Positions 2,527 through 52,717 of a stretch of 64,000 nt of DNA are shown here, in pieces. This DNA comes from Acinetobacter phage vB_ApiM_fHyAci03. The first letter of the stretch is position 1. The number at the start of each line of letters is the position of its first letter. The DNA lies in the sequence record NC_049438.1; one strand, written 5' to 3'. The notes beneath the pieces were generated by a model. It had not been told where the DNA came from, made no database searches, and saw only the letters and a program-made list of their open reading frames with translations. Both the position numbers and the translations under genes were made by a program.

Positions 2527-2652
2527 TTAAAGGACCCTGAGGTCCTTTTTAAATTTATCTTTGCGATAGTATTTTGATTTGTCTTTTACAACCTGCATTT
2601 TAAATGCAGGTGTTCTGACAGCTTTTGCGATCGGATTACGTTTACCTTTCAT
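2527..2652 (-). CDS. ArfA-like small basic protein (alternative ribosome rescue factor A-like); stop codon inside terminator hairpin
   Basis: 41-aa ORF MKGKRNPIAKAVRTPAFKMQVVKDKSKYYRKDKFKKDLRVL, absent from the ORF track because it is under 60 aa. It aligns with the ArfA core ([37 protein letters not shown]). GGAG Shine-Dalgarno sits 8 nt upstream. The ATG overlaps the upstream TGA as ATGA. Confidence 0.35.
   Translation of the reverse strand: MKGKRNPIAKAVRTPAFKMQVVKDKSKYYRKDKFKKDLRVL
2529..2548 (-). terminator. rho-independent terminator hairpin (AAAGGACC-CTGA-GGTCCTTT) followed by a U-run; contains the arfA-like stop codon
   Basis: Perfect 6-8-bp stem. The mRNA reads …GGACCUCAGGGUCCUUUAAUUUUG. 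Confidence 0.6.
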
Positions 2653-6939: not shown

Positions 6940-7373
6940 TCTACTGCTCCATAAATTGCAGATGTTGCACCATCAGTGTATGTATGTAAAATAACTCGAA
7001 TACCTCGAAGGAGGTTATTTTCAAGAGTGCTAAGATTTGCATCAGTGATATATGCATGTTTAAAGATACCTTCATCTGATGCTTGATCGATTTCGCAAAC
7101 TTTAAGAGGATTTTTTGCATGCTTCTTAATAGATTGCTCATCATAATCTAAATCAAGATTTAGCAACTCGTTATATGTAGGGAAGCGTTTACGTGCTTCG
7201 ATGATTAGTTTACGTTCATTAGATGTCTTAGACAAATTTGCGGCATCGTTAAAGACTTTGACTAAATTGTTGTAAATCGTTGCAGTGAGTTTCATTTCTT
7301 TCTCCAAAGGAGTCAGCTTACGCTGACATCCAATCTTTACGAAGTTGTGCATCATTACCAAATAGCATTTCAA
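6936..7373 (-). CDS. hypothetical protein
   Basis: 145-aa ORF downstream of gene 60. The true start may be an internal Met. Confidence 0.4.
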   Translation of the reverse strand: MKCYLVMMHNFVKIGCQRKLTPLEKEMKLTATIYNNLVKVFNDAANLSKTSNERKLIIEARKRFPTYNELLNLDLDYDEQSIKKHAKNPLKVCEIDQASDEGIFKHAYITDANLSTLENNLLRGIRVILHTYTDGATSAIYGAVE

Positions 7374-7840
7374 ATTGTGCCTTCCAATTTTCAGGAAGTT
7401 TGACTACATCGAAATGTGGTTCACGAATAACTTTTTCATACTCTTCCATCTCCAAGCTTCCGAGACCCTTGATGTAACGGAAACTATAGCCTTTAAGATT
7501 AGGTTTGTCTGCTTCATAATCTTCAATAGTGTAGTACCATTTTTGATCTTTGCCTTTCTGACAAATTGCTACTGGAGTTTTGACAAACTTGATTCGCCCT
7601 TGTTCAAAAAGTTCAGGCCAATTACTGAAAAATGCAAGCAATGATGGATAAATTGAACCAGTCCCGTCTTAATACTCGAAGTTAAAAATTAGATTAGCCC
7701 GAAGGCTAATCTACATCCGCATCTGTCATAATGGCGATGTTGCGATAATTCATAGTACTAGTGAAAGTACGGCGTACATTAGTTTGAGCTTTATAAGTGT
7801 TCATATCAACATCAGTTTTTGCGATTTGAGTTAATTTCAT
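7318..7840 (-). CDS. 60: DNA topoisomerase II small subunit gp60, translated in two segments joined by a 40-nt ribosomal bypass (segment 1 7709..7840, gap 7669..7708, segment 2 7318..7668)
   Basis: Segment 1 (MKLTQIAKTDVDMNTYKAQTNVRRTFTSTMNYRNIAIMTDADVD-stop) matches the T4 gp60 N-terminal 46 aa. Segment 2 (DGTGSIYPSLLAFFSNWPELFEQGRI…) matches T4 gp60 from its landing site (GLGSIYPSLLGFFSNWPELFEQGRI…). The joined product is 160 aa, the same length as T4 gp60. Confidence 0.8.
7692..7711 (-). promoter_or_regulatory. take-off stem-loop of the translational bypass (GAUUAGCC-UUCG-GGCUAAUC), holding take-off codon GAU and stop UAG in the 5' arm
   Basis: Perfect 8-bp stem with a UUCG tetraloop. This is a near copy of the T4 gene 60 take-off hairpin. 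A GAG lies 6 nt 5' of the landing GAC (7666..7668), as in T4. Confidence 0.75.
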
Positions 7841-8648
7841 TGTATACCTCGTAAAATTTTTCATCTGGAGTCCACCCTTTTTCAAATTCTTCAAAAATTC
7901 TACTATATAGGCGACTTCCACTAGTAATACCATTGAGATCTTTCCAGTATTTAATTGGATTTTCAAATGTCTCAATATTGTGTAAGTATATTTTAACATA
8001 CCAATCATAGAAAATTGGTATTGCTTTAACTATTTGTGCGTATATAGGCAAAGAATTCTTGTGATACCAAGGCCTAGCCTTCTTTTTAGCAGCGGCCGCT
8101 TTAGTGGCATTAGTAGTATTTCCTACACCCTTTAATCCTAATTCCTTTATTTTAGGATCATCGACAAATAAAGAGTATGTATTACCTTCGTCATCCTTAA
8201 AGCATGTCTTGCCTTTGATCCCAGCCATCTTTCTTCCGAAATTGACTCCCTTCCATATTGATCTATCAACAGAATCAACATCATGTATTCCAAATTCTCC
8301 AGTCTCAATATTTTTGAGCACCGTTTTATTTGTCATATATTCTTTTGACCATTCTGAAATGGCCTTTGAATGGGCCTCTCTTGCAAATGCGTAAGTCCTA
8401 GATGAGCATTTTCGATCTACTCCAGAATTGCTCATTCTACCTAGTGCAAATGCCATCTGGCTATTTCTGTGAATTTTATATAGTAGCACATGAGCTAAAT
8501 AATGTTCACGATAAGTCAAATGAACCAAATTAGATTTGTCATCAGATCCTCCCATAGAATGAGGAACAATATGGTGCCACTCTCCTTTATCAATAGAGCG
8601 ATGTCTCGCTCTATCAATTAATTCATCATATATTCGTTGATAGTTCAT
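7812..8648 (-). CDS. HNH homing endonuclease (MobA-like)
   Basis: 278 aa. HNH motif EWHHIVPHSMGGSDDKSNLVHLTYREHYLAH. Inserted between gp39 and gp60. Its start overlaps the gp39 stop as ATGA and its 3' end overlaps the gp60 start by 29 nt. Confidence 0.8.
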   Translation of the reverse strand: MNYQRIYDELIDRARHRSIDKGEWHHIVPHSMGGSDDKSNLVHLTYREHYLAHVLLYKIHRNSQMAFALGRMSNSGVDRKCSSRTYAFAREAHSKAISEWSKEYMTNKTVLKNIETGEFGIHDVDSVDRSIWKGVNFGRKMAGIKGKTCFKDDEGNTYSLFVDDPKIKELGLKGVGNTTNATKAAAAKKKARPWYHKNSLPIYAQIVKAIPIFYDWYVKIYLHNIETFENPIKYWKDLNGITSGSRLYSRIFEEFEKGWTPDEKFYEVYNEINSNRKN

Positions 8649-10177
8649 AACAAACTCTTAACTTTCATCCATTTTCCATCAACTTGGATTTCATCATTTT
8701 CATTAACGACGGTTCCATCTTCAAGAGTATACCATTTACCTTCTTCAGCATATGTTCCTGCCGGTTCTCCAATTACAAGTCCAGTGATTGCACAGATATC
8801 GAAAATTTCTTTGTTCTTGAGCATTTCTGCTGGTGTCATACCCCATGTATTCATTACTTTACCGCGTAATGGATAACCGCCATGAAGTTCACGATCACGA
8901 GTTGAAATTAAATAACCAATCGCAGAATCACCTTCTGTTAAAAATAATGTTGTCTCAACTGTGTCATCACCATATTTGTTAGCTTTAATATGTTTTGCAA
9001 CTTTTGCCTTTGCAGCTTTCTTTGCAGCACGAGTGTTTGCAGCTTTTTCAGCAGCTAATAACTTTGCAAGAACTGCTTCAATGATAGGCATCAAAATAGA
9101 TTCATTTGCAATAAGCATCCGAGCCAATTTCTTGATGTCAATATCAATATGAGCTTTCACTTCACCCCATGGAGAAGTTAATCGTTCTTTTGTTTGAGAA
9201 TCAAAACGCATATTAGACATGTTCTTAATGAATAATAACATAGTCAAGCATTCTTTGATTCGTGCTTTATTAACTTCAACTTTATGGCGTCGTTTGATTT
9301 GCGGAATCAATTCATTTGTCAATTCATCGATCACATAATCAATATGAGAACCACCAACCTTTGTGTGGATTGCATTGACAAATGACAAGTGTCTGAATCC
9401 ATCATCTGAACGTCCAATAGCTAATTGAACATTGTCCGTTTCCATGATGATTGCATCTTCATCATACATTTTAGCGTATTTTTTGAAGTTTCCAAGTACT
9501 CGAACGTTGTTGAATTTGAATTGGATGTCTGGGTAAATAACCGCTAAGATTTGTAGACGATCCTCAACAATTTGTTCGATCGTGCTATCTATACCATCAC
9601 AATCAAGCAATGAGAAATCCGGCACAAATGATACTTCAGTACCTTGTTTTCCACCTGCTTTTGTTTTCCAATCAATGTTTGACATGTTGTCTGAACATTT
9701 AACAACGATAGTGTTTTCACCATCACATGTTGTACCAATGAATTCTTTAGAGAAAATATTCGTTAATGAACTACCAACACCATTGAGGCCTGCAGTTTTA
9801 CGAGTTGCATCATCACCAAAGTTGCCTCCAGCTTTAGTTCGAGTCCAACAAGCTACAGCGCCAGGTAGTTGAGTGCCTTCTGGAGTAGTAATCATTGCCT
9901 GTGGAATACCACGACCATTGTCTTTAACTGTAATTTGATTGCCTGAAATCTTGACTTCAATTTTATTTGCAAATGCAAAATCAGTTCGAATTGCTTCATC
10001 TAATGAATTATCAATAATCTCATCAATAATTTTGACTAAAGCCGGAACATATTTAAGTGTTTGAAATTTGCCAAACAAAAACCGATCATGATTTTCTGAT
10101 GTTGTAGAACCAACATACATGCCTGGACGCTTTAACACATGTTCACGATCAGATAACATTTTAATTTCAGTGCTCAT
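8645..10177 (-). CDS. 39: DNA topoisomerase II large subunit gp39 (GyrB-like ATPase)
   Basis: 510 aa. GHKL ATPase motifs (…IIDNSLDEA…, …DNGRGIP…, …GLNGVGSS…). Corresponds to T4 gp39. Confidence 0.9.
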   Translation of the reverse strand: MSTEIKMLSDREHVLKRPGMYVGSTTSENHDRFLFGKFQTLKYVPALVKIIDEIIDNSLDEAIRTDFAFANKIEVKISGNQITVKDNGRGIPQAMITTPEGTQLPGAVACWTRTKAGGNFGDDATRKTAGLNGVGSSLTNIFSKEFIGTTCDGENTIVVKCSDNMSNIDWKTKAGGKQGTEVSFVPDFSLLDCDGIDSTIEQIVEDRLQILAVIYPDIQFKFNNVRVLGNFKKYAKMYDEDAIIMETDNVQLAIGRSDDGFRHLSFVNAIHTKVGGSHIDYVIDELTNELIPQIKRRHKVEVNKARIKECLTMLLFIKNMSNMRFDSQTKERLTSPWGEVKAHIDIDIKKLARMLIANESILMPIIEAVLAKLLAAEKAANTRAAKKAAKAKVAKHIKANKYGDDTVETTLFLTEGDSAIGYLISTRDRELHGGYPLRGKVMNTWGMTPAEMLKNKEIFDICAITGLVIGEPAGTYAEEGKWYTLEDGTVVNENDEIQVDGKWMKVKSLL

Positions 10178-10233
10178 CGCAACTCCAACGTAATTAGGTT
10201 ATTGAAAATTATAATTCAATAATGTTAAAAGCA

Positions 10234-10253
10234 AAGGGAGCATTAGCTCCCTT
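10234..10253 (-). terminator. terminator hairpin (AAGGGAGC-ATTA-GCTCCCTT) between lysozyme gene and gene 39
   Basis: 8-bp perfect stem followed by a T-rich run. Confidence 0.55.
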
Positions 10254-10256
10254 AAA

Positions 10257-10823
10257 TTATTGTTCAAAGTACTTCTTCTCAGCTTTACGTCTATTTGTTA
10301 GACCTGGAATAACTTGTAAGACACCTTTAACTCTGCCCTTATTCCATACCAAGAACTGATCTGCTGCACCTGCATAATCTTTCGCATTCAACTTCTTCAA
10401 CAATGTTGACCCAGCGAATGCGGTTTCACCAATATTGTATACTAATGAGACTAATGCATCAAATTGTGTCTGTTTTAAAGGAACAGTCACAAGTTTATTA
10501 ACAGCTCTGACGAATTTTTGGAGATCGTTCTTCATATACGCTTTAGCTTGAGCTTCAGTGCAAGTATCGCCTTTCTTAACAGCAACGCCGTTAGGGTAAC
10601 GAGTTGTCCCGTATCCGATAGTCCAAACACCCACACTATCAAGATAAGCCGAAGTTCTAAGCCCCTCAAATTGTCTGATCAAATCAACGCCAAGATCTGA
10701 AATATTTACTTCACTCGGCGCTAATGTATTGTTGATTACTTTATTAAGTTCATCGACTTGAGCTTGTGTCAATTTTCCGCCAGCTATTTCACGAGCTGCA
10801 TCAAAAAATGGCTTAACATCCAT
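10257..10823 (-). CDS. T4-lysozyme-family (GH24) muramidase with N-terminal extension
   Basis: 188 aa. …LIRQFEGLRTSAYLDSVGVWTIGYG… is a T4 gpe-like catalytic region. A roughly 45-aa N-terminal extension precedes it. Confidence 0.75.
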   Translation of the reverse strand: MDVKPFFDAAREIAGGKLTQAQVDELNKVINNTLAPSEVNISDLGVDLIRQFEGLRTSAYLDSVGVWTIGYGTTRYPNGVAVKKGDTCTEAQAKAYMKNDLQKFVRAVNKLVTVPLKQTQFDALVSLVYNIGETAFAGSTLLKKLNAKDYAGAADQFLVWNKGRVKGVLQVIPGLTNRRKAEKKYFEQ

Positions 10824-35868: not shown

Positions 35869-35886
35869 ATAGGCCCGAAGGCCTAT
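35869..35886 (-). terminator. terminator hairpin with UUCG loop (AUAGGCC-UUCG-GGCCUAU) 3' of 35888..36190
   Basis: Plus strand reads ATAGGCCCGAAGGCCTAT followed by TTTTAAAAA. Confidence 0.55.
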
Positions 35887-37342: not shown

Positions 37343-37358
37343 GAGCCCGAAGGCCCCA
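37343..37358 (-). terminator. terminator hairpin with UUCG loop (GGGGCC-UUCG-GGCUCC) between the two glycosyltransferase paralogs
   Basis: Plus strand reads GGAGCCCGAAGGCCCC. Confidence 0.5.
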
Positions 37359-52701: not shown

Positions 52702-52717
52702 TGGGCCCGAAGGCCCA
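52702..52717 (-). terminator. terminator hairpin with UUCG loop (GGGCC-UUCG-GGCCC) between genes 45 and 44
   Basis: Plus strand reads TGGGCCCGAAGGCCCA. Confidence 0.5.

Follow-up and report, generated by a model that had tools for sequence, protein, structure and literature searches.

The region of gene 60 in the Acinetobacter phage vB_ApiM_fHyAci03 (sequence record NC_049438.1), which lies within the 64,000-nt stretch of DNA analysed here (the window), raises the question of how one topoisomerase subunit could be made from a reading frame that is closed by a UAG codon after 44 codons and taken up again 40 nt downstream in a different frame. The translational bypass of T4 gene 60 is the textbook extreme of translational recoding, and to our knowledge bypassing of the gene 60 type was known from one example for over 30 years. 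Natural variants that use an Asp tRNA, wobble-matched codons and a shorter gap can reveal which features the mechanism requires. A preliminary description, made from the letters of the window alone, had proposed that the locus is such a variant. The positions it gave for the GAU, UAG and GAC codons and for the 40-nt spacer were all correct (table 1).

On the minus strand, gene 39, an ORF for an HNH homing endonuclease (MobA) and gene 60 follow each other consecutively. The gene 39 product is the same as the uninterrupted topoisomerase II large subunit (Topo2L) of phage Lazarus up to ...GEPA (aa 473) and divergent thereafter, and its C-terminal stretch, including the C-terminal extension (CTE), is 60% identical to the C-terminus of T4 gp39 over 63 aa. 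The MobA ORF shares 4 nt with the end of gene 39, at its stop codon, and 29 nt with the start of gene 60. Gene 60 starts with an ATG at 7840, with a GAGG Shine-Dalgarno sequence 7 nt 5' of it, and its first coding segment holds both the putative nascent-peptide signal and the TOPRIM DxDxD motif. After the landing GAC, the codons GGG ACT GGT TCA ATT TAT encode GTGSIY in a frame that differs from that of the first segment, and the second segment runs on to a stop codon at 7320..7318. No extra stops or indels were found in either of the two coding segments.

Table 1. Positions of the topoisomerase gene parts, the inserted element and the predicted bypass signals in the window.
Feature	Position	Strand	Basis
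Gene 39, N-terminal part of topoisomerase II large subunit, 510 aa	8645..10177	-	ORF and Pfam HATPase_c, DNA_gyraseB
CTE of gene 39, last 37 aa, element-encoded	about 8757..8648	-	divergence from Lazarus
Inserted MobA element, about 1089 nt (CTE, MobA, gene 60 N-terminal extension, spacer)	7669..8757	-	alignment
MobA, predicted HNH homing endonuclease, intact, 278 aa	7812..8648	-	phrog_655, E 4.7e-50
Gene 60 coding segment 1, 44 aa, MKLTQIAKTDVDMNTYKAQTNVRRTFTSTMNYRNIAIMTDADVD	7709..7840	-	aligns with T4 gp60 residues 1-45
Candidate 5' stem-loop, adjoining the take-off hairpin upstream	7713..7740	-	folding
Take-off stem-loop GAUUAGCC-UUCG-GGCUAAUC, 10 bp, UUCG tetraloop	7690..7713	-	folding
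Predicted take-off codon GAU, Asp44, equivalent to T4 Asp45	7709..7711	-	sequence
UAG stop codon, in the A site at predicted take-off	7706..7708	-	sequence
Non-coding spacer, 40 nt (43-nt coding gap with one Asp codon counted)	7669..7708	-	sequence and alignment
GAG, putative mini Shine-Dalgarno, 6 nt 5' of the landing codon	7675..7677	-	T4-like spacing (GAG AUUAUU GGA)
Predicted landing codon GAC, the Asp codon of the parental (uninterrupted) gene	7666..7668	-	sequence and alignment
Gene 60 coding segment 2, 115 aa and stop, GTGSIYPSLLAFFSNWPELF...DWMSA	7318..7665	-	ORF and Pfam TOPRIM_C

Joining the two coding segments gives a gp60 of 44 + 115 = 159 aa, one residue fewer than the 160 aa first proposed, with the junction ...DADVD-GTGSIY.... 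Residue for residue, the joined protein reads as the NYRNIAIMTDADVDGTGSIYPSLL of the uninterrupted sister-phage topoisomerase (Lazarus Topo2L). The Lazarus protein has ...GEPAENLNYRNIAIMTDADVDGTGSIYPSLLAFFSNWPELF... at this place, which the joined protein of the window matches exactly, with NYRNIAIMTDADVD before the junction and GTGSIYPSLL... after it. When the DNA was compared with the Topo2L genes of Lazarus and AB-Navy97, the insertion at the bypass site amounted to exactly 43 nt, and the megablast homology to about 40 cassette-free phages started at query position 233, which is position 7668 of the window and belongs to the landing codon. The joined protein also matched the gp60 family phrog_7229 over positions 2-158 and the full-length Topo2L family phrog_543 over positions 26-158, in both cases as a single stretch that crosses the junction. 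The frame switch and the collinearity with T4 gp60 that had been proposed were borne out by alignment and by the profile matches, and the agreement goes far beyond coincidence.

Several simple explanations of the interrupted frame were excluded. A sequencing or assembly error, which the preliminary description had itself named as a possibility, does not account for the locus, since five phages sequenced independently of each other (the window phage, KARL-1, AC4, DLP2 and phi1_092060) carry the cassette, from GAT to GAC, without a single nucleotide difference, their assemblies being independent and their flanking DNA diverged. In the 8 codons 3' of the landing codon, all substitutions among the cassette-bearing phages are synonymous in the landing frame, a pattern that could have been imported via recombination with uninterrupted phages. 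Simple +1 or -1 frameshifting was also rejected: the gap is closed by TAG 7708, TAA 7696 and TAA 7684 in frame 0, by TAA 7671, which lies immediately 5' of the landing codon, in the +1 frame and by TAA 7691 in the other frame. With no frame open across the gap, the two segments cannot be joined by a simple frameshift. A search of Rfam over 7000..9000 (E up to 1) for an intron or a known RNA family returned two chance-level matches, both far under their gathering scores, and this agrees with the earlier statement that no intron-like element separates the segments. A group I or group II intron is excluded also because the 43-nt insert is too short. As a pair of take-off and landing codons, GUA 7714 and GUA 7675 were rejected on account of a frame mismatch.

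Both the take-off codon and the UAG codon lie within the 5' arm of the take-off hairpin. The near-T4 UUCG hairpin of the preliminary description proved to be real and to extend to 10 bp, with a predicted free energy of -14.5 kcal/mol (z -6.65; 0 of 200 shuffled sequences equally stable), compared with -14.7 kcal/mol for the T4 hairpin. The distance of exactly 6 nt between the GAG and the landing codon 3' of it was confirmed and equals that in T4. A and U make up 80% of the spacer 3' of the hairpin. The 40-nt spacer is free of GAY triplets, an absence which is statistically unremarkable by itself. Both GAU and GAC are decoded by one tRNA-Asp (G/QUC), and no tRNA genes, including any for tRNA-Asp, were found within the 64-kb window. 

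The T4-like character of the nascent peptide, also part of the earlier proposal, was upheld by the alignment with T4 gp60, in which the eight listed residues Y16, Q19, V22, R23, R24, Y33, M39 and T40 (T4 numbering) are kept. According to the available text of Manning & Atkins (bioRxiv 10.1101/2022.08.31.505936), Y16, Q19, V22, R23/R24, Y33, M39 and T40 are among the residues relevant for bypassing, and by analogy with T4 we infer a bypass-promoting role for the nascent peptide of gene 60. The N-terminal extension is 1 aa shorter than that of T4, and in the alignment the substitutions H44 to V, K5 to Q and L6 to I are seen.

Upstream of the take-off hairpin, the candidate 5' stem-loop has a predicted free energy of -8.3 kcal/mol (z -2.2), a value reached by 4 of 200 shuffled sequences, while the parental sequence encoding identical amino acids at this site reaches only -2.6 kcal/mol. 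These values are suggestive only. Downstream of the landing site no significant fold was detected (z +1.5), and the window differs from T4 in having no evident 3' stem-loop. Both the 5' and the 3' stem-loops are described in the available text of the preprint as poorly conserved between clades.

The stem of the take-off hairpin was further compared in a 22-nt alignment of the window with T4, Salmonella S16, Proteus PM2 and Shewanella Thanatos-1, which represent five clades. The nine stem pairs shared in this alignment are formed by standard pairs in all 45 pair cells, and the pairing falls to 11-48% when the 3' partner is shifted by 1 to 3 columns. There are four variable pairs among the nine, namely the outermost pair and the three that are formed by the take-off codon; three of these four have changed on both sides, and only the pair at the first base of the take-off codon varies merely between G-C and G-U. 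Pairing persists across the codon changes, so that the take-off stem is kept whatever the take-off codon is. Compared with S16, the window has an identical 3' arm (GGCUAAUC) and a single G-to-A change in the 5' arm, by which GGU becomes GAU and a G-U pair becomes an A-U pair.

With every sequence-level hallmark of the T4 gene 60 type present, the locus supports the earlier proposal of a natural bypass variant, and the gene 60 cassette very probably acts as a functional programmed translational bypass of this type. Other explanations have nevertheless to be considered. The gene could be split three ways, with release of a 44-aa peptide at the UAG and with a C-terminal fragment started internally at TTG 7641, the pieces then assembling non-covalently, as gp39 and gp60 already do. 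One split (gp39/gp60) is in fact tolerated by the T4 topoisomerase, and in the GenBank records of KARL-1, AC4, DLP2 and phi1_092060 gene 60 appears as two CDSs, the second of which starts from this TTG or a neighbouring codon. However, the TAA directly before the GAC closes the landing-frame ORF, and the earliest possible start is 9 codons downstream, so that the conserved GTGSIYPS would be lost and the TOPRIM DxDxD motif would be left on a free 44-aa peptide. The position of the TTG is not conserved among the cassette-bearing phages, and the 'RBS' predicted in AC4 is only 3 nt. A three-way split would also give no reason why the Asp codons match, why the GAG lies at 6 nt, why the parental protein is restored exactly or why the stem has compensatory changes, and it is regarded as improbable. 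Still less probable is that gene 60 is decaying after inactivation by the inserted element and that the phage relies on the host gyrase. T4 topoisomerase mutants are merely 'DNA-delay', the element is absent from most sister phages, and KARL-1 and DLP2 already have a degraded MobA, but in five phages with diverged flanks neither the cassette nor the two coding segments are damaged, and they are identical or differ synonymously. The absence of additional stops or indels from either segment speaks against decay, and selective conservation of such features in many clades is reported in the accessible part of the preprint (bioRxiv 10.1101/2022.08.31.505936).

It could also be argued that the hairpin is mainly an intrinsic terminator, or an RNA-stabilising UUCG hairpin between two cistrons, with no role in recoding. 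A terminator-like scan matched 7685..7713 on the minus strand, where the 10-bp stem is followed by ATTTTTAACT, and the hairpin with the subsequent AUUUUUAAC fits the pattern of an intrinsic terminator; three other CCUUCGGG hairpins of the window appear, by eye, to be intergenic. The AC4 annotation places a terminator at this site, but on the opposite strand. Moreover, the U-tract is not only short but also interrupted, bypassing is proven for the homologous hairpin of T4, which lacks a U-tract, and the stem co-varies with the take-off codon's identity, something that would be needless in a terminator. An exclusive role of this kind is hardly credible. Termination as such is compatible with bypassing and the two are not mutually exclusive, and partial transcription termination within gene 60 may compete with the bypass.

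For the bypass, a sequence of events can be proposed in which the dynamic steps are modelled on T4, while the window itself shows the sequence elements and the restoration of the protein. Ribosomes would translate the 44 codons, and the nascent peptide (..YKAQTNVRRTF..MTDADVD) would act in the exit tunnel. Once the P site held GAU with its peptidyl-tRNA-Asp and the A site held UAG, the UUCG hairpin would form, and the nascent peptide together with this A-site hairpin would promote the release of the anticodon from the mRNA. The ribosome, keeping its peptidyl-tRNA, would then slide across the 40-nt A+U-rich spacer with no decoding. Pairing of the anti-SD with the GAG would set GAC in the P site, where the same tRNA-Asp would pair again, and decoding would restart at GGG. 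The product would be one 159-aa gp60, identical by alignment to the uninterrupted protein. Two features of the landing region are to be kept in mind, as a second GAC lies out of frame 5 nt 3' of the landing codon (7663..7661) and the GAG of the mini-SD is a near-cognate codon of tRNA-Asp as well. Landing fidelity is thus not guaranteed, and the ribosome might land wrongly at either of them, with a truncated product as the result.

The cassettes of T4 and of the window occupy the same position in the topoisomerase, offset by one codon. They share the UAGCC-UUCG-GGCUA hairpin core, the UAG and the GAG 6 nt before the landing codon, and have a homologous nascent peptide, CTE and MobA. The window uses the Asp codons GAU and GAC, which are wobble-matched and non-identical, whereas T4 uses the Gly codons GGA and GGA, and the U-tract that follows the take-off hairpin in the window is absent from T4. 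MobA is intact in the window and a pseudogene in T4. The preliminary description had set a gap of 40 nt against 50 nt in T4; its 40-nt spacer stands, but the comparison mixed two conventions, as the spacer is 40 nt compared with 47 nt in T4 and the coding gap 43 nt compared with 50 nt. This makes the gap 7 nt shorter than in T4 and not 10 nt, because the 50 nt of T4 include one matched codon. This shortening lies wholly between the hairpin and the GAG, where 21 nt in T4 correspond to 14 nt in the window.

It is doubtful that the Acinetobacter sub-type works in a measurably different way from T4, although the weak pairing at GAU and strong pairing at GAC, the 7-nt-shorter spacer, the near-cognate GAG and the U-tract are features by which it might. 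If so, the efficiency of bypassing could possibly be tuned by the queuosine status of tRNA-Asp, and transcription termination at the hairpin could possibly compete with it. Neither the GAU-weak/GAC-strong asymmetry nor the terminator-like U-tract was found in the available parts of the preprint (bioRxiv 10.1101/2022.08.31.505936).

Comparison with other gene 60 cassettes showed that the non-GGA forms include GGU/GGC (Stupor type) and GAC/GAC (Aeromonas). The Aeromonas phages Aes012 and 50AhydR13PP resemble the window in having Asp codons for take-off and landing and a UAG after the take-off codon. Their cassettes differ from that of the window in the use of GAC for both codons, in a spacer of 14 nt (17 nt as annotated) and in the absence of a stable take-off hairpin (-3 kcal/mol, z +0.4). 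The GenBank record of Aes012, which predates the preprint, already annotates a region of predicted bypassing that uses GAC (Asp) codons. Stupor, Abraxas, LemonAid and AB-Navy-v2 are Acinetobacter phages like that of the window and have their cassettes at the same insertion site, with a homologous MobA (57-58% aa identity) and a homologous N-terminal extension. These Stupor-type cassettes differ in having the Gly codons GGU and GGC, an AGG 'hungry' codon in place of the stop, a 7-bp stem with a GCAA loop, and the GAG 7 nt before the landing codon by hand count. The sub-type that combines Asp codons with the UUCG hairpin was found only in GenBank Acinetobacter phages. An exact-pattern scan of IMG/VR with GAYTAGCCTTCGGGCTA gave three matches, which were ordinary hairpins or coding sequence, and none of them was in a gene 60 context.

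Bypass cassettes in phages, including those of Acinetobacter, were described by Manning & Atkins (bioRxiv 10.1101/2022.08.31.505936) from six genomic clades. In the accessible text, the locus of fHyAci03 ('Aci03') and KARL-1 is placed in clade 5 alongside dozens more, and take-off at Asp45 with GAU/GAC was concluded independently for vB_ApiM_fHyAci03. The 'Aci03' sequence in File S1 of that preprint (3061 nt) corresponds exactly to positions 10378..7318 of the window, and the bypass finding is for this reason a rediscovery. The Asp-codon bypass cassette was already known from sequence analysis in the preprint, and the novelty implied in the preliminary description does not hold for this locus, which had been reported from the same phage. 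The preprint, as far as its accessible text goes, is wholly in silico and earlier than the mosaic genomes of DLP2 and phi1_092060. The gap length of 43 nt is not given explicitly in its main text as accessible, which was searched for '43 nt' and '40 nt' only. The literature searches yielded no experiment, by protein analysis or reporter, that tests the Acinetobacter variant, and the genome paper of fHyAci03 makes no mention of topoisomerase, homing or bypass. In the GenBank records MH713599 (KARL-1), OL770262 (AC4), OP946502 (DLP2) and PQ885451 (phi1_092060), the two CDSs of gene 60 are labelled 'hypothetical protein' or 'C-terminal region' plus 'topoisomerase subunit', which is a systematic mis-annotation of the Acinetobacter cassette across the four records examined.

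The best explanation for the origin of the cassette is that it arrived as the 3'-terminal part of the MobA element, which split the large-subunit gene of the phage topoisomerase II. The element stands in for about 47 nt of the parental gene, as counted by hand from alignments with uninterrupted phages, and relative to Lazarus and AB-Navy97 its 5' break falls after GCAG and its 3' break at the landing codon. The insert is a MobA homing-endonuclease element homologous to that of T4, and it encodes a predicted endonuclease. The Pfam HNH score of MobA (19.9 bits) is slightly under the cut-off of 21.4 bits, the GEWHHI motif is present, and the C-terminal half is 48% identical to T4 gp60.1. Most sister phages were found by megablast to be without the element. 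MobA of the window is 100% identical to that of AC4, while KARL-1 has a frameshifted MobA in which the HNH motif GEWHHI carries an H-to-R change, and DLP2 has a truncated one. Because the cassette stays identical in KARL-1 and DLP2, where MobA is degraded, it outlives the endonuclease.

Part of the gene 60 N-terminal extension is a replacement copy (HomR) of NYRNIAIMTDADVD, located at 7712..7753 on the minus strand. HomR and the parental copy (positions 2559..2600 of the compared parental sequence) encode the same amino acids and differ, according to a hand count from the alignment, at 8 of 42 nt, all of them synonymous sites. The changes AAU to AAC, AUU to AUC and GCA to GCC in HomR raise the stability of the candidate 5' stem-loop from -2.6 to -8.3 kcal/mol. 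By analogy with T4, interruption of the gene by the element probably destroys the target of MobA itself and so shields element-bearing genomes; this protection of the target site follows T4 work cited in the accessible part of the preprint (bioRxiv 10.1101/2022.08.31.505936). The synonymous changes in HomR may also abolish the MobA target site.

MobA elements of Acinetobacter phages fall into two types, type A (window and KARL-1, GAU/GAC) and type B (Stupor and LemonAid, GGU/GGC). When DLP2, phi1_092060 and AC4 were aligned to positions 7500..8900 of the window, DLP2 was of type B from the CTE to about alignment column 808 and of type A beyond it. In phi1_092060, MobA and about 29 codons, the first half of the N-terminal extension of gene 60, were of type B, and HomR and the cassette beyond were of type A. 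The 5' junction of AC4 was type-B-like. Judged from these alignments, the predicted elements of types A and B recombine, and the bypass cassette and the MobA gene are swapped as separate modules. Such an exchange of cassette and MobA between element types was not found in the available parts of the preprint (bioRxiv 10.1101/2022.08.31.505936).

The window contains four CCUUCGGG hairpins including that of the bypass cassette, the others being located at 35874..35881, 37346..37353 and 52706..52713 on the minus strand. On the strand of the bypass hairpin, 0.26 such further hairpins would be expected by chance, and three were present. Inspected by eye, these three appear to be intergenic T4-style UUCG RNA stabilisers or terminators. 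As the CCUUCGGG motif recurs in the genome, the motif alone is not specific for bypassing.
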